From Candidatus Saccharimonadia bacterium (GTDB lineage: Bacteria; Patescibacteriota; SICC01): 64,000 bases of DNA. A model generated the notes under the pieces. That model saw nothing but the letters and a program-made list of their open reading frames with translations. It was not told the origin of the DNA and did no database searches. Within the stretch, counting starts at the first letter, position 1. Each line of letters begins with the position of its first letter. Made by a program: the position numbers and the translations under genes. The stretch spans positions 677,136 to 741,135 of the forward strand of contig JANWJF010000001.1 in assembly GCA_025449535.1 (NCBI GenBank), written 5' to 3'. Below, piece by piece: positions 2,423-51,651 of this stretch.

Positions 2423-2663
2423 GCACTCGAACAACGGCGGCCGGTCGGTCATCAACACGACCCCGGCCGCCCGCGTTCACCTCCTCCTGCTCACACATCT
2501 CGTATCCTTGCTTGCCGATTTACGGCCCGCTTTCGTTTTGCTACCGTTGGAATACGGAACCGCTGAAAACACACGGCGGCTTTCTTTTTGTCCGCGATTC
2601 GCTCTTGATCGGATTGCGTGTCTCACAATCAGGTCAGGAGAAGACGAACGAAGGGAGCAATGG

Positions 2664-3011
2664 ATGAGCCCCGCAGTTGCCGAAGCACCCTCAAGAACCA
2701 AGCTGGGGATTCCGGACCGGTCGCTGGACCAGCGCATGGACGCGCTGAAACATGCCAACGACATCCGGACCGCCCGAGCCAAACTCAAGAAGGACCTCAA
2801 AGCGAGAAAAGCGAGCATCCATGAGTTGCTGCTCGACCCGCCCGAGCACACGCTGACCATGAAGGTCTTCGATCTGCTGCTCGCAGTCCCGAAGTACGGG
2901 CGGATCAAGACCAACCGGGTGCTCAACCAATGCCGGATCTCGCCCTCCAAGACACTCGGCGGACTCTCGGAGCGGCAGCGCCTGGAGCTGGTCAACTATC
3001 TCCGCCGGTAG
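2664..3011 (+). CDS. integration host factor mIHF-like DNA-binding protein, copy 2 (tandem paralog)
   Basis: Same domain architecture as 2015..2422 (ARAKLKKDL…GGLSERQRLEL); ATG at 2664 with a GAAGGGA ribosome-binding site. Confidence 0.55.
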   Translation: MSPAVAEAPSRTKLGIPDRSLDQRMDALKHANDIRTARAKLKKDLKARKASIHELLLDPPEHTLTMKVFDLLLAVPKYGRIKTNRVLNQCRISPSKTLGGLSERQRLELVNYLRR

Positions 3012-3187
3012 GTCCGCCGATGTCCGTGCACGGAGCGGCCGGCCTGGTCAAACTGCGACCCCGCCGGCCGCTCCCCAGCACACCCTCCTGACCTGATTTC
3101 CTGAATACCCTCGTGTCACGCGGGTCGGGTTTCGATATCACACGACTCGCGATTCATTCGCAAGTCGACCCCGAAGCCAGTCGCGTC

Positions 3188-3221
3188 ATACACGTTCGAA
3201 ACCACGGTTTCGAACGTGTAT
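3188..3221. repeat. perfect palindrome with 16-bp arms and a 2-nt spacer (ATACACGTTCGAAACC ac GGTTTCGAACGTGTAT)
   Basis: Read directly from the sequence; lies between convergent genes and at the high-GC/low-GC boundary. Confidence 0.8.
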
Positions 3222-3228
3222 ACAGTCT

Positions 3229-3262
3229 GTGGAGTTGAGCGGGCGTCTTTCGAACCCCGCCT
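3229..3262. repeat. degenerate copy of the tRNA-Ala 3' end (putative att-like direct repeat bounding the islet)
   Basis: gtggagttgagcgggc…tcgaacc…gc matches the plus-strand image of the tRNA-Ala 3' end at 5218-5250 (gtggagctaagcgggctcgaaccgc), 14/16 identical in the first block. Confidence 0.5.
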
Positions 3263-3291
3263 TCAGGCAGAACCTGGCCAAGCTCCTAAGG

Positions 3292-3843
3292 CTAATCCGG
3301 CAGACTCGTTTTTAAATCGTTGAGGAAATCTGCGAGAGATACTATCCGGCAGTTGTACTGCCCAGTGTCTACTGCTTTGAAATCTTTGAGATTAGTGGTT
3401 ACAAGTACGTCACAGCCGAGACGTTCTGCAAGCGAGAAAATGGAAGCATCTGCTTGGCGTTGGTTACGATTCAACCACTGGCGGCTATCCAGTGGTGGTT
3501 TTCCTTGACGCTCGCGCTCCTCGTTGTGTGTGGAGAATGCTGCTTGAGTATCAGCCACTTCACGGCGAATCTCTGAATAGCCGTTTCCTCCTGCGAGTAT
3601 ATCTGGGCCGCCAATAGCTGAGACACCAATTGTGAAGTAACGAGTGTCGTCTTCTGTAAAGCGCTGCTGTAGCAACGTCCAATTACTTTGCCCCGATTCG
3701 GTAAGACGACTCTCGTCAAACTCATCGAGCACTGCACTGACGAGTATGTAATCGTATCCCTCAGGGCTACTGAGGATCGCTTTAGTCATGTGTTGATCCT
3801 GGCAAGCGTCGATTAGGGCGTTAGTGTCAAAAGCGATTAGCAT
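3292..3843 (-). CDS. PIN-domain protein (VapC-like nuclease toxin candidate), ~183 aa
   Basis: N-terminal IAFDTNALID acidic motif and C-terminal GCDVLVTTNLKDF motif typical of PIN domains; ATG at 3843, alternative TTG at 3903; low-GC islet. Confidence 0.6.
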   Translation of the reverse strand: MLIAFDTNALIDACQDQHMTKAILSSPEGYDYILVSAVLDEFDESRLTESGQSNWTLLQQRFTEDDTRYFTIGVSAIGGPDILAGGNGYSEIRREVADTQAAFSTHNEERERQGKPPLDSRQWLNRNQRQADASIFSLAERLGCDVLVTTNLKDFKAVDTGQYNCRIVSLADFLNDLKTSLPD

Positions 3844-3874
3844 CTCGTTTCTAGTATGCTCCAACACAGAGGCG

Positions 3875-4036
3875 CTAACGTTTCTGCTCTCGAACAGCCG
3901 CAAGAACCCTGACTAAATCAGTGAGGTGCCGCTCTCGCTCAACTTTCCGCAAGCTGTATTCGAGCAGCGCCTTCACGTAGCCATCCCAGTCGGGCGGATT
4001 ACGCCGTACGCCCTCGATAGAGAGATCAGAAAGCTT
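3875..4036 (-). CDS. small ORF immediately upstream of the PIN gene (possible antitoxin partner, ~53 aa from a GTG)
   Basis: Position and size fit a type II toxin-antitoxin layout; the N-terminal extension of the 126-aa stop-to-stop ORF looks non-coding (Arg-rich); start uncertain. Confidence 0.2.
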   Translation of the reverse strand, partial: KLSDLSIEGVRRNPPDWDGYVKALLEYSLRKVERERHLTDLVRVLAAVREQKR

Positions 4037-4274
4037 CACGCGCTGCCTCCGGAGCTTCTGTGGCCTCCTTGTTACCACCCAGGTGTATCCGGCAAAGACC
4101 CGAGCGCCGGAATGAAACAGCCGATGCGTGAGCGTGGCACTACAGAAAAGCACCGGTCGTGATCGCCGGCCGGTAGTAAGGGGATAGCGATAGTCAGCCT
4201 GCTGTTTGGAAGCAGTCCCGAACTCGACAGTGCGTGGCTTGCGCGGTCTTCCCACCTACCAACCATACGCTGAC

Positions 4275-4287
4275 GGGGGGGGGGGGG
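4275..4287. repeat. G13 homopolymer tract
   Basis: 13 consecutive G residues ~50 bp upstream of the ATG at 4336, in the divergent intergenic region. Confidence 0.9.
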
Positions 4288-4335
4288 CAATCAAGGTGCC
4301 TTGTAGCGTGTAACTGTCAGTCCTATGCTCGATCT

Positions 4336-5094
4336 ATGAGTAAAGACGATCCGAAGCAAGCCCTAACTACTGTTACAGCAACAGAGCTCAGTGAGCGCAA
4401 GCCAATCACACAGATAATTCACAGGCAGTTAGAAAATCTCCTCCAATACGTTCCAGGTTTACTCGAATCTACAAAGGGCGAGAACGCGACGCGTCTGAGT
4501 CGACTCCTTCAGGCTTTTAATTCTGGTCGATTCATCCAGCAACTTGATAAGGAGCTCGCAGACTTAAGGAAGAGCAGTTCTATTAAGGATGATTATTTCG
4601 TTCAAGAGCAAGCGCTTGAAGGTCTTCAGATTTTATTCGAGTTTATTGACGAGGACTCTCCTGACCTGGTGCGGTTCGAAGCTATGAAACAGGTGTTTCT
4701 AACAATGTGTCAGGAGAAAGACAATTTATCTGACCGAAACGATCCTATTCCTACGCAGTTACTCAGAATCTGCCGAGGACTATCTTCGGGCGAACTGATC
4801 GTCTTGACGACTGCCTATAAATTACGAACCGAAGTAAAAGAAGAACGTAAGCAGGGGAAGCAACCGATTGGGTACTGGCATGAGGAAATTGCGCAGGGCA
4901 GCGGTCTCGTATTTCCAGACCTCGTAGATTTTCACGAAAGAAAACTAATGGACAAGAACCTCATTACTCCGCGGTACCAAAATGACGACCTTATTTATTA
5001 CGGAGCGAAGAATCGTTTAACTGACCTAGGTGAAACACTTTGCGAGTTCATTGGCGAGCTTGATCCCCGCCACCCAAATCCTTTAGCTAAGTGA
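4336..5094 (+). CDS. hypothetical protein, 252 aa, carried on the low-GC islet
   Basis: Long ORF at ~40-45% GC with clear coding periodicity; no recognisable motif. Confidence 0.5.
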   Translation: MSKDDPKQALTTVTATELSERKPITQIIHRQLENLLQYVPGLLESTKGENATRLSRLLQAFNSGRFIQQLDKELADLRKSSSIKDDYFVQEQALEGLQILFEFIDEDSPDLVRFEAMKQVFLTMCQEKDNLSDRNDPIPTQLLRICRGLSSGELIVLTTAYKLRTEVKEERKQGKQPIGYWHEEIAQGSGLVFPDLVDFHERKLMDKNLITPRYQNDDLIYYGAKNRLTDLGETLCEFIGELDPRHPNPLAK

Positions 5095-5218
5095 TCAGTT
5101 TTTGATTTGACGACTGTTCAAGGGTTCGACAAAGGCCCTTTAACTAGTATTAATGGGACAAGAATCGAAACGCCGTAACTGCGGTATTTAATGAATTGTT
5201 CGAGAAACGTTTTGTCTG

Positions 5219-5291
5219 TGGAGCTAAGCGGGCTCGAACCGCTGACCTCCTGCATGCCATGCAGGCGCTCTACCAACTGAGCTATAGCCCC
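5219..5291 (-). tRNA. tRNA-Ala (anticodon GGC)
   Basis: Cloverleaf read from the reverse complement: GGGGCTA acceptor stem, anticodon loop AUGGCAU, T-arm GGTTCGAGCC; CCA not encoded. Confidence 0.9.
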
Positions 5292-5357
5292 AAGTGCATT
5301 TCTTATCCTAGCATCGGCCTCCGCTCTTTCTGTAGGCCATCTCGGCGCCTGCCGGCA

Positions 5358-5390
5358 GGCGGACACCACGATGCCAACTGAGCTATAGCC
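5358..5390 (-). pseudogene. truncated 5' fragment of tRNA-Ala (GGCTATAGCTCAGTTGG) followed by the shared junction motif CATCGTGGTGTCCGCC
   Basis: 17-nt exact copy of tRNA-Ala positions 3-19 lying ~85 nt upstream of the intact gene; the rest does not fold as a tRNA. Confidence 0.5.
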
Positions 5391-5925
5391 TCGCGCGTAA
5401 GAGTATACCGAAGAAAAAAGTTCGACCCGGACATGTCGCGTGAAAGCACACATTCGGGTCGAAGGAAGCCTGGCCCCGCCGCAGCTGGGAATCCACTTGG
5501 CAGTAGAGTGCCGCGGCGGGGCTGGCAAGCGCGTCCGGAGGATCCCTTGACCAGGGACATGTCGATCGCGCAAGTTTCGTGGGTCGTCTATCGGACAGGC
5601 CAAGTGGCTAAAGACGGTTTACAAACCGTCCTCTCCTTGGTGCCAGAGGACGTCCAGCCGGACCCACGCTGTTCGATCTCCAGCAGATGACGCGGCCTAC
5701 CAGCAGACAGGGAGGGATGGCTCGCGTAAATTCACCGCCAAAGAGAACAAGTCTGGTAAGGTGTTGGCAAAAGCCTTACCTTAGTAAAGCCGTTTTTCAT
5801 CATTGCCGCAACCATGTCGACGCGTGATAAGATTGAAGTGATGCATACCGTGAACCGAAACCGCTTTTTCTTTCCCACCTCCGGGCGGTCTTTGGCATGA
5901 GTTAATCACGAACGCATCCGTACGA

Positions 5926-5949
5926 GCCGCCCACCGGGCGGCGTTTTTG
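5926..5949 (+). terminator. intrinsic terminator or attenuator hairpin (GCCGCCC acc GGGCGGC GTTTTT) in the leader of the 5981 operon
   Basis: GC stem followed by a T-tract, 30 nt upstream of the ribosome-binding site and ATG at 5981. Confidence 0.55.
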
Positions 5950-5980
5950 TGAATCAACTAACCAAGGAAAGGAGACCATC

Positions 5981-16798: not shown

Positions 16799-16814
16799 CT
16801 TCACGTGACAACCC

Positions 16815-16910
16815 GGAGGAGTGGCAGAGCGGTTGAATGCAGCGGCCTCTAAAGCCGTCAGTTCCCCGCCGGGGAACTTCCCACCAAGGGTTCGAATCCC
16901 TTCTCCTCCG
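16815..16910 (+). tRNA. type-II (long variable arm) tRNA with anticodon CUA; Ser-like identity (G73 discriminator, GGAGGAG acceptor stem); predicted amber-suppressor tRNA-Ser(CUA), or a pseudogene
   Basis: Manual fold: acceptor GGAGGAG/CTCCTCC (an 8th C-G pair is possible), U8, 3-bp D stem with an AGCGG…GG loop, anticodon stem GCGGC/GCCGU, loop CUCUAAA (34-36 = CUA, A37 A38), ~27-nt variable arm with a GTTCCCC/GGGGAAC stem, T-arm AAGGG-TTCGAAT-CCCTT; one base away from a Ser-CGA anticodon loop. Confidence 0.55.
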
Positions 16911-17510
16911 TTCCGGGTGCTGGCGTTCATCGCTGGAACTCACTGTTTATGAGATTGCGGGTAACACCGCCCCCGGAGTCACTTGCTGCGCAAGCAGCAC
17001 CTGCTGCGTACGGACCCGTTCGACTGGGGACCGTACTCAGGTCGGCGCGTGGCTTTTAGAGCCAGGTCGCGTGCCGGATCTTCTCCCTCGGTCGATCCGA
17101 CCAGGGAAATCGTGCGCCGAACTGTCAGGGACGGCGTCCGCAGCGCGAACGAACCGCGCCGCGACCACGAAGCGATCCATCGGGCGATAGGGGCGATGGA
17201 ATCGCAGCAGTGCCGTCGTTTCGTCCGTGCTCCGAGACGACGGTGGGCCTCAACTCATCAGGCCTATGACGGTCCGGGAGCCGGTATCTGAGACCTCGAC
17301 CTCAGCTGCCACCAAAAGGCTCCCGGACCGGAACTTCCCCCAGCACGCGGCCACGACCCATCTCGGGTTCGACACATCAGCCGCTTTCCGACTTCGCAGA
17401 CCATCCAATCTCCGAAGACTTGAATACGAAGCTCGCAAGCCTTCACCGGCGCCCCACGCGAGCTTCTTTCAATTGTGCTCGGAATCCTGCCGGATAGTAC
17501 GATTAGGGGC

Positions 17511-30443: not shown

Positions 30444-30851
30444 TTGGTTACGGTACAATACGCAACCATGATTGAGAGTGAAGAAAAGTTCGTAGATCCG
30501 GATCTGGCTCGTGAGCTGACGGGCGAGGAACTTCCGGAGCCTGACCCGGAAGGCGACCCGTCGCTGGAAGAGAAGCCCGTCGAGGACTATGTCGGTGGCG
30601 AGTTCGTCGGCGACCGCCAGCTTACGGTTCTGGTCCGCGAGGACGAGGGTCCGATGGAGTATCGGATCGGGTTCTGCGATCAGGGAATCGTCTATGACAG
30701 ACGCCCTATGGGTACGTCGCCCGCAGACCGGCCGACCCCCATCGATCGGGATGCGGCGCCGAAGCTAGCCCAGGAGGCGGCTGATGGGTTGCTGATGCGG
30801 TATGTGCCGGAGGCCAGGGAAGTGCTCAGGAAACAGCAAGGGGCTGATTGA
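30444..30851 (+). CDS. acidic hypothetical protein (135 aa; the ATG at 30468 is also possible)
   Basis: ORF between two tRNA-Leu genes. Confidence 0.4.
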   Translation: MVTVQYATMIESEEKFVDPDLARELTGEELPEPDPEGDPSLEEKPVEDYVGGEFVGDRQLTVLVREDEGPMEYRIGFCDQGIVYDRRPMGTSPADRPTPIDRDAAPKLAQEAADGLLMRYVPEAREVLRKQQGAD

Positions 30852-30885: not shown

Positions 30886-30970
30886 GCCGAGGTGGCGGAA
30901 CTGGTAGACGCGCAGGCTTGAGGGGCCTGTGGGCATTATGCCCGTGGAGGTTCGAGTCCTCTCCTCGGCA
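30886..30970 (+). tRNA. tRNA-Leu (anticodon GAG)
   Basis: Type II cloverleaf, anticodon loop UUGAGGG, TAGACT hexamer upstream. Confidence 0.9.
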
Positions 30971-30976
30971 CAATCG

Positions 30977-31058
30977 ATATACATTTCCGGAGCCTCGGCT
31001 CCGGAAATGCGAGACGCTACCGGGCTCGGGTCGATTCGCAAGTGAATTGCGAATCGAG
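30977..31058 (+). ncRNA. 82-nt structured element, copy A (ATATAC, 13-bp hairpin, GCGAGACG…GGGCT.GGGTCGA linker, 11-bp hairpin, TCGAG), immediately 3' of tRNA-Leu(GAG)
   Basis: Paralogous to 32021-32102, with compensatory stem changes; function unknown. Confidence 0.45.
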
Positions 31059-31085
31059 ATGGTATCTAATCCCGATTGCATGATG

Positions 31086-31129
31086 TCGATGCTACGATAG
31101 TCTCGTTCGCGGGCACTTAGCTCAGTTGG
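31086..31129 (+). pseudogene. 44-nt duplicate of the tRNA-Val promoter region plus the first 21 nt of tRNA-Val (truncated 5' tRNA fragment), followed by CATCGTGATGTCCGCC
   Basis: Identical to 31186-31229; after GTTGGC it diverges into a 56-nt non-tRNA sequence. Confidence 0.6.
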
Positions 31130-31209
31130 CCATCGTGATGTCCGCCGAGTGAACGAGGGGCGATGCTTTTCCGCTTCTCATCGCGCCGATGCTACGATAG
31201 TCTCGTTCG

Positions 31210-31283
31210 CGGGCACTTAGCTCAGTTGGCTAGAGCGCCTCGTTTACACCGAGGAAGTCGGGGGTTCGAGTCCCTCAGTGCCC
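31210..31283 (+). tRNA. tRNA-Val (anticodon TAC)
   Basis: Cloverleaf with anticodon loop UUUACAC; TACGAT/TAGTCT promoter-like sequence upstream. Confidence 0.9.
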
Positions 31284-31716
31284 ACACGATTGAGTCGGTC
31301 AGTACTGGTTGTTACGATAGGGCTACGCTTTTGCAGCTTCAAAGTTTCACTGGCACGTGTCTTCGCCCAGTTAGTGCTCAGCCCTAGGGCAGTCGACGAT
31401 CCTCCTCTAGGCGAGCTTGGCACACGGCTCGTCATGTCCTGGACGCATCCCTGCCCGTTCAGGAGCGACCAGCCGGTGGAAAAAGACCTTTCGGAATCGT
31501 CTGCGAAGAGCGGCTCCGGAAGGCACCTCTTCAAAACCTTCTTCGACACCCACGGTCCCACACCTGTCGAAGAACCCGGATCCGGTCGTCTTGCGTGGCG
31601 CGAGAAGGGCACATCGCCGACACCCTTCGCTAACCGCGACAGCAGACGACCGGATCCATCTTCATTTTTGGGCATCCCTACGATGACCCTTCCTTCGGAA
31701 AGGGTAGATTGCGGGT

Positions 31717-31896
31717 ATGCCAGAGAAAGCCAAGACGGGAGACGAGGTGCGGACCGGCGGGCAGACCCGGACCGGCGAGGTCAAGAAAGTGAAGCCGGAT
31801 GGGACCCGGGTGATCAAGACGCGCACGGGGACGCTGCAGGAAGACAAGGATCCGCAGAAACCCGCCAAGCTGGACGCCGAGAAGGACGAGGACTGA
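31717..31896 (+). CDS. possible small basic/acidic protein (59 aa, MPEKAKTGDEVRTGGQTRTGEVKKVKPDGTRVIKTRTG…)
   Basis: Short ORF with protein-like composition inside an otherwise non-coding 660-bp tRNA spacer; no strong ribosome-binding site. Confidence 0.25.
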   Translation: MPEKAKTGDEVRTGGQTRTGEVKKVKPDGTRVIKTRTGTLQEDKDPQKPAKLDAEKDED

Positions 31897-31942
31897 GCGG
31901 ACCGGCCGCTTCCGGTATGATTGAGCGTGGATGCGAATCCAC

Positions 31943-32017
31943 GCCGGGATAGCTCAGTGGTAGAGCGCTGGCCTGAAGAGCCAGGCGTCCCCAGTTCGAA
32001 TCTGGGTCCCGGCACCA
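31943..32017 (+). tRNA. tRNA-Phe (anticodon GAA), CCA encoded
   Basis: Cloverleaf with anticodon loop CUGAAGA; TATGAT hexamer upstream. Confidence 0.9.
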
Positions 32018-32020
32018 TCC

Positions 32021-32102
32021 ATATACGTTTTTCAGCGCAAGCGCCGAAAAACGCGAGACGTCACTGGGCTGGGGTCGACTCACGGCGAAGCCGCGAGTCG
32101 AG
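32021..32102 (+). ncRNA. 82-nt structured element, copy B (same architecture as 30977-31058), immediately 3' of tRNA-Phe
   Basis: Shared ATATAC start, GCGAGACG…GGGCT.GGGTCGA core and TCGAG end; both hairpins are preserved by covarying sequence. Confidence 0.45.
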
Positions 32103-32154
32103 CTTCTATTCGATTTCGTGCACACGAGCACTAGTTGCTATACTTTAATCCGTT

Positions 32155-51629: not shown

Positions 51630-51651
51630 CCGTGGTATACTGGCCCCGTAT

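Follow-up and report, generated by a model that had tools for sequence, protein, structure and literature searches.

Short structured repeats were found at a fixed distance behind tRNA genes in a 64,000-nt stretch of chromosomal DNA (contig JANWJF010000001.1, positions 677,136 to 741,135; hereafter the window) from a Patescibacteria (Candidate Phyla Radiation, CPR) metagenome-assembled genome with a G+C content of ~63%. Three copies, named A, B and C, lie behind tRNA-Leu(GAG), tRNA-Phe and a decayed fragment of tRNA-Ala, respectively. In all three, the TATAC at the head of the element starts exactly 8 nt after the tRNA discriminator base, leaving a 7-nt spacer, and the element points the same way as its tRNA (+ strand for A and B, − strand for C). 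This fixed spacing to the tRNA end is the unusual feature of the family, which is undescribed but belongs to a broad kind already known, that of small, structured repeats between genes. We tentatively favour the explanation, to which we give slightly less than an even chance, that the element is a non-autonomous small repeat that was inserted or recombined at a fixed point behind tRNA genes and was then carried as a tRNA 3′ trailer.

The initial annotation of this DNA had described two paralogous, structured 82-nt copies (A and B) oriented with the upstream tRNA, a description that held. Both copies are present, both hairpins are predicted in each, and the stem sequences had been quoted correctly, with one A.C mismatch per hairpin in copy B. 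A covariance-model search for further copies had also been proposed; a model built from copies A and B only and run unfiltered (R1) detected a third copy to which it was blind, at 3141-3223 on the − strand (63 bits, E ~2e-13). That no further copies would turn up, an outcome named in advance as refuting, was thus not borne out. Covariance-model scans of the window and 16 kb of extra flank (L038 and L039), together ~80 kb of the ~0.81-Mb genome, returned no copy above noise beyond the three listed here (R2 denotes a later model).

Copy A, 30977-31089 (+), 125.6 bits with R2; 82-nt part at 30977-31058, made of a lead ATATA, hairpin 1 at 30982-31009 (12-13 bp), linker at 31010-31030, hairpin 2 at 31031-31057 and G at 31058; 3′ extension with motif TATCTAATCCCGA at 31063-31075, similarity being weak past ~31075.
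Copy B, 32021-32133 (+), 116.5 bits; 82-nt part at 32021-32102, with the architecture of copy A: hairpin 1 at 32026-32053, linker, hairpin 2 at 32075-32101, extension TATTCGATTTCGT at 32107-32119.
Copy C, 3111-3223 (−), newly found; hairpin 1 a perfect 13-bp palindrome; extension TATCGAAACCCGA.

The 82-nt parts of copies A and B align without gaps and share 50 invariant columns. Similarity extends ~20-30 nt 3′ of hairpin 2, which gives a unit of ~100-113 nt ending in a conserved 3′ motif, TATYnRAnYYCG (A and C are identical at 11 of 13 bases). Overall identity between copies is 50-62%, unevenly distributed along the element: between A and B it reaches 81% in the linker, 59% in hairpin 2 and 39% in hairpin 1, and for hairpin 1 it ranges from 32 to 57% across the copies. 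The conserved linker, 21-22 nt long, separates the two hairpins; that of copy C is the most diverged of the three (59-64% identity to A and B). Hairpin 2 keeps a conserved lower stem (TCGAY​T/ARTCGA) and a conserved GAA at the 3′ side of its loop. The core shared by A and B is real, although its spacing had been misstated: it reads GCGAGACG-N5-GGGCT, not N6. At the correct spacing this 26-nt core (GCGAGACGNNACNGGGCTNGGGTCGA) occurs twice in the window, against 0.01 occurrences expected by chance. On the favoured reading, the conserved linker, hairpin-2 foot and loop are probably the recognition site of a putative protein.

The window carries genes for LeuRS, SMC, UvrA/B/C, LigA, GatA, DnaE and ClpC, among others. 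Copies A and B lie in a tRNA cluster 3′ of secG with the order Leu(CAG), a 127-aa open reading frame (ORF), Leu(GAG), Val, ~430 nt of non-coding DNA and a 59-aa ORF, Phe, Gly, Cys and Leu(TAA). The tRNA sequences next to the element are as follows.

tRNA-Leu(GAG), 30886-30970 (+); discriminator A at 30970; spacer CAATCGA at 30971-30977, then TATAC of copy A.
tRNA-Phe(GAA), 31943-32014 (+); discriminator A at 32014; spacer CCATCCA at 32015-32021, then TATAC of copy B.
Decayed tRNA-Ala 3′ fragment, 3230-3275 (−); discriminator A at 3230; spacer CAGACTG at 3229-3223, then TATAC of copy C.
Live tRNA-Ala, 5218-5291 (−), 2 kb from the decayed fragment, which is an att-like repeat of the live 3′ end (5214-5240).

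Copies occur on both strands while the cumulative GC skew climbs monotonically over most of the window with no sustained reversal; the orientation of the element therefore follows the tRNA and not the replication strand. Only 3 of the 10 tRNA genes in the ~80 kb are followed by the element. As first described, copies A and B each lie between a tRNA 3′ end and the promoter of the next tRNA: A after tRNA-Leu(GAG), B after tRNA-Phe, each preceding a TGnTAnnnT promoter-like box. The box before tRNA-Gly (AGTTGCTATACT) is kept in the relatives L012 and L036.

Between the live tRNA-Ala and its decayed 3′ fragment lies an island of ~2 kb (3231-5213) with a G+C content of 44-51%, and a 20-nt att-like repeat (3225-3244 and 5214-5233) is 90% identical between its two ends. 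The three ORFs of the island (3292-3903, −; 3875-4255, −; 4234-5094, +) had no Pfam, PHROG or PADLOC match, and no integrase was found among them. A tRNA fragment together with low-GC DNA is what an island typically leaves after integrating at the 3′ end of a tRNA gene, which implies that copy C originally stood directly behind tRNA-Ala and was later displaced by the ~2-kb island.

We compared the locus with syntenic loci of relatives, which were reached through homologues of UvrC and of the LysM protein; the neighbouring MazG-like ORF had no homologue on record.

L036/L037: UvrC 85% identical; same tRNA order; 25 nt between Leu(GAG) and Val, 41 nt between Phe and Gly; no element.
L012: UvrC 78% identical; same tRNA order; spacers of 23 and 47 nt; no element.
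L014: UvrC 74% identical; same tRNA order; spacer of 23 nt; Phe and Gly separated by an insertion of other DNA; no element.

Models R1 and R2 found no copy in 92 kb of relatives. At the locus of copy B, both flanks are conserved in L036, ATCCA on the left and AGTTGCTATACT on the right, and the block 32022-32132 of the window (~110 nt) stands in place of 13 nt there. Every relative obtained lacks the element in the orthologous spacers; it does not belong to the conserved make-up of these tRNA operons. Since the relatives have the same tRNA order with short spacers and no element, copies A and B would most simply be insertions gained in the lineage of the window. The contigs of two further relatives (84-85%) end at tRNA-Leu 3′ ends, L016 at 5692 of 5702 and L034 at 5114 of 5115. 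These ends are consistent with repeated or polymorphic DNA behind these tRNAs, which they do not prove.

Outside the genome, the search for homologues yielded none in the relatives or in the collections scanned. The exact core GCGAGACG-N5-GGGCT-N-GGGTCGA gave two chance matches in genome contigs (L009, in a coding frame; L010, apparently coding) and one in metagenome contigs, in coding sequence. A relaxed three-copy core matched 14 loci in viral contigs, 0 of them with the structure. The core with N6 spacing, which is wrong, had a sole match in viral contigs (L001), in coding sequence and without hairpins, and was discarded. Diverged relatives would escape these scans, which demanded an exact match to a core derived from two or three copies, and the genome and metagenome collections evidently did not hold the window's own genome. 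Copy B had no meaningful blastn match in phage and plasmid collections; for the 8-kb neighbourhood, blastn matches in phages were limited to tRNA, ligase and unannotated fragments that spanned ≤5% of the query.

The same tRNA genes bear other insertion scars, namely the 2-kb island with its att-like repeats and X/Y promoter and 5′-fragment duplications. A second small module was seen 5′ of tRNA-Val (31087-31230, +) and tRNA-Ala (5273-5420, −). It consists of a truncated tRNA 5′ fragment ending in the D-loop (...AGCTCAGTTGGC), then ~56 nt that start with ATCGTGRTGTCCGCC and end in the promoter-like box GCCGATGCTASGATA, then the complete tRNA. The resulting direct repeat measures 44 nt at Val (31087-31130 and 31187-31230) and 17 nt at Ala (5374-5390 and 5273-5289). 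The module is not present in the relatives L012, L014 and L036 and looks like an insertion that split the tRNA gene and supplied a new promoter and 5′ part.

Both hairpins of the element are strongly structured. The predicted fold of copy A has an energy of −45 kcal/mol (z = −6.6) and that of copy B −33 kcal/mol (z = −2.7 on the + strand, −5.4 on the − strand). In the three-copy alignment 95.7% of cells are paired and both sides have changed in 13 of 23 pairs; in hairpin 1 this applies to 10 of 12 pairs. None of 500 shuffles equalled the observed pairing and covariation, and slid registers were only 21-45% paired.

The initial annotation had taken compensatory change as the signature of a functional RNA structure, which is too strong a claim here. 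In copies A and C the arms of hairpin 1 form a perfect 13+13 DNA palindrome around a 2-nt centre, copy B has one mismatch there, and the palindromy runs into the loop. Nearly all pairs are Watson-Crick. On the sense strand the non-standard ones are two A.C in copy B and one U.G in hairpin 2 of copy C; they show no strand bias, and no strand can be called from them. The hairpins of copy C stay well paired even though the adjoining pseudo-tRNA has decayed and the live tRNA-Ala lies 2 kb off. Two studies report that replication template switching perfects quasipalindromes: it makes and maintains perfect stems, and one such event can leave changes that look compensatory (PMC8794818, PMC7202029). 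Because hairpin 1 is a perfect palindrome, and because copy C has kept its hairpin while the pseudo-tRNA decayed, the covariation does not prove a functional RNA. Measured against a generic structured RNA, covariation is strong, the 3 non-standard pairs point to neither strand, and no orthologue was found outside the genome.

Several further features were considered within the element and rejected. A third helix around the 3′ motif, proposed by RNAalifold, has inconsistent pairs in A and a shifted register in C, and was kept out of the model. A central linker stem (GAC/GUC or CGAG/CUCG) is either invariant or not conserved in B and gained no support. A linker micro-ORF, RD(A/V)TGLGS, has a start codon only in A, and indels in C break its frame. 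By inspection, a promoter within the element was dismissed, since TATACA does not end in the T that the local TAnnnT boxes conserve.

The element was also compared with known classes. Rfam 15 at gathering thresholds reported only tRNAs in the window, and with E up to 10 the three copies gave hairpin-type noise only (ALIL at 8-10 bits, microRNA models at ≤23 bits). The Rfam search that had been suggested thus did not identify them as ordinary terminators, and no Rfam family matched. The copies do have stable G+C-containing hairpins, with 12- and 11-bp stems and whole-element energies as given above. Neither hairpin is followed by a U-tract: GCGAGACG follows hairpin 1 in A and B, and GATGG, GCTTC and TGTGA follow hairpin 2. 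A terminator scan left the elements unreported and found canonical sites elsewhere; in the window, canonical terminators with T-runs stand at 5926, 32233 (after tRNA-Gly), 41766 and 51650. Without a U-tract, in a genome whose canonical terminators have one, the element does not qualify as an ordinary terminator. Of the candidates that the initial annotation had listed, 'tRNA-associated repeat' fits best.

Mobile-element classes were examined likewise. The element behaves as an interspersed repeat in that it occupies three non-homologous loci and its orthologous sites are empty in L012, L014, L036 and L037. No terminal inverted repeats were seen by inspection, the ends ATATAC... and ...YCGA (or the tail) not being reverse complements in any copy. 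None of the three copies lies between direct repeats of the kind a target-site duplication leaves, and the empty site of L036 (ATCCA|GGTAGG...|AGTTGC) has no duplicated junction bases. A miniature inverted-repeat transposable element of a DDE transposon was therefore rejected, as the element has neither inverted repeats nor a target duplication. An IS200/IS605-derived or RAYT-dependent REP element was rejected since hairpin 1 is not conserved, the two hairpins within a copy are unrelated and orientation follows the tRNA; no Y1/HUH partner gene was found among the window ORFs scanned. An integron attC site does not fit two separate hairpins that have no GTTRRRY or RYYYAAC boxes. A simple att remnant was rejected as well, there being no displaced tRNA fragment distal to A or B, and copy C lying outside the sole recognisable island. 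Pfam, PHROG and PADLOC scans of the adjacent ORFs found no integrase or partner enzyme beside the copies.

We propose the following course for an inserted repeat. The element would have been inserted in tRNA orientation 7 nt 3′ of the discriminator of at least three tRNA genes (Leu-GAG, Phe and Ala), and would spread as a non-autonomous repeat. A putative trans-acting enzyme may recognise the linker and, in hairpin 2, the foot and the loop; the same enzyme might also read the invariant geometry of the tRNA gene 3′ end as a 'safe-haven' target. Since no terminator separates tRNA and element, the latter would be transcribed within the 3′ trailer of the tRNA precursor. There, 7-12 AU-rich nt followed by a very stable hairpin could offer an endonuclease a place to cut and stop 3′ exonucleases, functions presumably dispensable for tRNA maturation. 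The palindromy of hairpin 1 may owe its upkeep mainly to template-switch correction of the DNA and not to selection acting on an RNA.

Several points weigh against this proposal. Neither terminal inverted repeats, a target-site duplication nor a partner enzyme was found in the three copies and the window ORFs scanned, and the only three copies known are old and diverged, with no direct sign of recent mobility. A conserved unpaired linker, covarying helices and strict coupling to tRNAs are also expected of a co-transcribed functional RNA. The comparison is unrooted, and loss in the relatives is a less simple alternative to gain here. The evidence covers the ~80 kb already named out of the whole genome, and the exact-core collection scans would have missed diverged relatives.

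The strongest competitor, a serious one though less probable than the inserted repeat, is a functional RNA module of the tRNA 3′ trailer that is co-transcribed with the upstream tRNA. Such a module could serve in processing or 3′-end stabilisation, in U-tract-independent termination or insulation, or as the source of a stable trailer-derived small RNA; all these roles belong to this less probable reading, as does the idea that the linker is a functional protein-binding or base-pairing part. A conserved unpaired linker between helices in which 13 of 23 pairs changed on both sides is what such an RNA would show, and the strong folding z-scores, the 7-nt discriminator distance and tRNA orientation of all 3 copies, and the separate promoter of the next tRNA at A and B agree with it. 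However, every relative obtained has the same spacers without the element, which means that these tRNAs do not need it, and it stands behind only 3 of 10 tRNAs in the ~80 kb. Copy C, cut off from its tRNA by the 2-kb island, has perfect hairpins but the most diverged linker. Palindromy that runs into the loop, the near absence of G.U pairs and the lack of strand bias also speak against an RNA, as do the missing U-tract in a genome that uses canonical terminators and the absence of any Rfam match with E up to 10.

A bolder possibility, which we regard as unlikely, is that the element homes to a point 7 nt behind the discriminator by recognising the tRNA gene or transcript and not a DNA word, or else that it represents, with the 5′ 'X/Y' module, a new class of tRNA-trailer RNA modules in Patescibacteria. 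Homing of this kind, if true, would give prokaryotes an equivalent of the tRNA-targeted insertion that eukaryotic retroelements show.

Less probable again, and improbable in our judgement, is that the copies are remnants of the attachment-site-proximal arm of tRNA-integrating elements whose island was later deleted and whose tRNA 3′ end was restored. tRNA genes are integration targets in this genome, as the 2-kb low-GC island with its tRNA-Ala fragment and 20-nt, 90% identical repeat indicates; every copy adjoins a tRNA 3′ end, and in relatives, too, insertions are concentrated at the tRNA cluster, a hot spot for them. The scheme nevertheless needs three independent deletions that spared the same ~100-nt piece. 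Neither A nor B has a displaced tRNA 3′ fragment on its distal side, copy C stands on the chromosomal side, outside the sole recognisable island, no integrase was found near any copy in the window, and covarying hairpins are not what one would expect of arm-type sites. Independently evolved intrinsic terminators or chance look-alike hairpins are effectively excluded: hairpin 1 of copy A (GGAGCC-loop-GGCTCC) does resemble the stem of the canonical terminator at 51650 and a site behind a tRNA is the natural place for a terminator, but the 26-nt core occurs twice against 0.01 expected, the full-length model scores 63-126 bits, three loci have length, register, linker, hairpin-2 foot and 3′ motif in common, and neither hairpin has a U-tract.

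The known systems closest to the element are the following. REP/BIME of proteobacteria, including RIP/BIME-1, are intergenic palindromic repeats with two palindromes around a conserved linker. Like them, the element is ~100 nt long, non-coding and intergenic, is transcribed in operons on our reading, has two stem-loops and a conserved linker, and lacks inverted terminal repeats and a target duplication; REP/BIME can block 3′ exonucleases. Unlike REP/BIME, in which the palindromes are conserved and copies run into the hundreds, here the linker is conserved, the sequence of hairpin 1 is free, and three copies are known; the element also keeps a fixed distance behind the tRNA end, and no RAYT-like gene was seen in the window.

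Mitochondrial double-hairpin and repetitive hairpin-forming elements are reportedly hairpin-forming mobile repeats (e.g. PMC2800124). By analogy only, these resemble the element in being very small and structure-defined, in lying in spacers often beside tRNAs and in being present or absent between close relatives. They differ in being organellar, AT- or GC-cluster based and numerous, and no conserved linker or fixed tRNA-end spacing is known for them. Palindrome-associated HUH elements derived from IS200/IS605 likewise have subterminal hairpins without inverted terminal repeats or target duplication and insert in a specific orientation beside a short target. They keep the hairpin sequence constant and are oriented with the replication strand, whereas here hairpin 1 varies, the two hairpins of a copy are unrelated, orientation follows the tRNA on both strands and no transposase was found. 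With Rho-independent terminators the element shares a perfect G+C-containing stem with a tetraloop directly 3′ of a gene; it differs in having no U-tract and in combining two hairpins with a conserved linker and a 3′ motif.

Other observations were made in the same DNA. The tRNA cluster is a clade-wide insertion hot spot (window 30444-30851, L034 4631-4975, L036 8874-9212, L014 5539-6625). In the window, L034 and L036, the two tRNA-Leu genes are separated by an ORF of 112-127 aa that has a TTGAAA-17-TACAAT promoter of its own; L012 and L014 lack this ORF, and in L014 the Phe-Gly and Gly-Cys intervals contain other ORFs. The stretch 31286-31716 (+), between tRNA-Val and the 59-aa ORF and tRNA-Phe, is gene-free over ~430 nt and is preceded by a promoter-like TTGTTACGATAGG. 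Its counterparts in L012 (12845-13282) and L014 (4723-5200) are likewise free of genes and have motifs in common, and L036 has only 55 nt there. The stretch had no Rfam match and may be an unannotated RNA. At 5420-5950 (−), ~500 nt of visibly self-complementary non-coding DNA lie 5′ of tRNA-Ala and end in a T-run, with no credible Rfam match.

Just downstream of copy C and convergent with it, the ORF 2508-3011 (+) encodes an S13-like H2TH domain (PF22525, E = 5e-8). The H2TH fold is common to actinobacterial integration-host-factor-like proteins. An adjoining ORF of similar size (1907-2422) had no domain match. Elsewhere, 16814-16911 (+) holds a 98-nt class II tRNA with a long variable arm and the anticodon CUA, called 'Pyl' by ARAGORN and scored as tRNA at 58 bits by Rfam. 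It is possibly an amber-suppressor-type tRNA. TAG is the commonest stop of the 52 long ORFs (20, with TGA 19 and TAA 13) and ends SMC, UvrB and NusA.

With three known copies in one lineage, the practical reach of the family is limited. It does offer a warning for RNA-motif discovery, in that perfect-palindrome hairpins beside tRNAs can mimic 'compensatory' changes without a conserved RNA gene. If the targeting is real, even reduced Patescibacteria genomes (~0.8 Mb) carry small structured repeats that colonise tRNA flanks. Such repeats would then remodel tRNA operons, turning the compact, co-transcribed Leu-Leu-Val and Phe-Gly cluster into separately promoted units.

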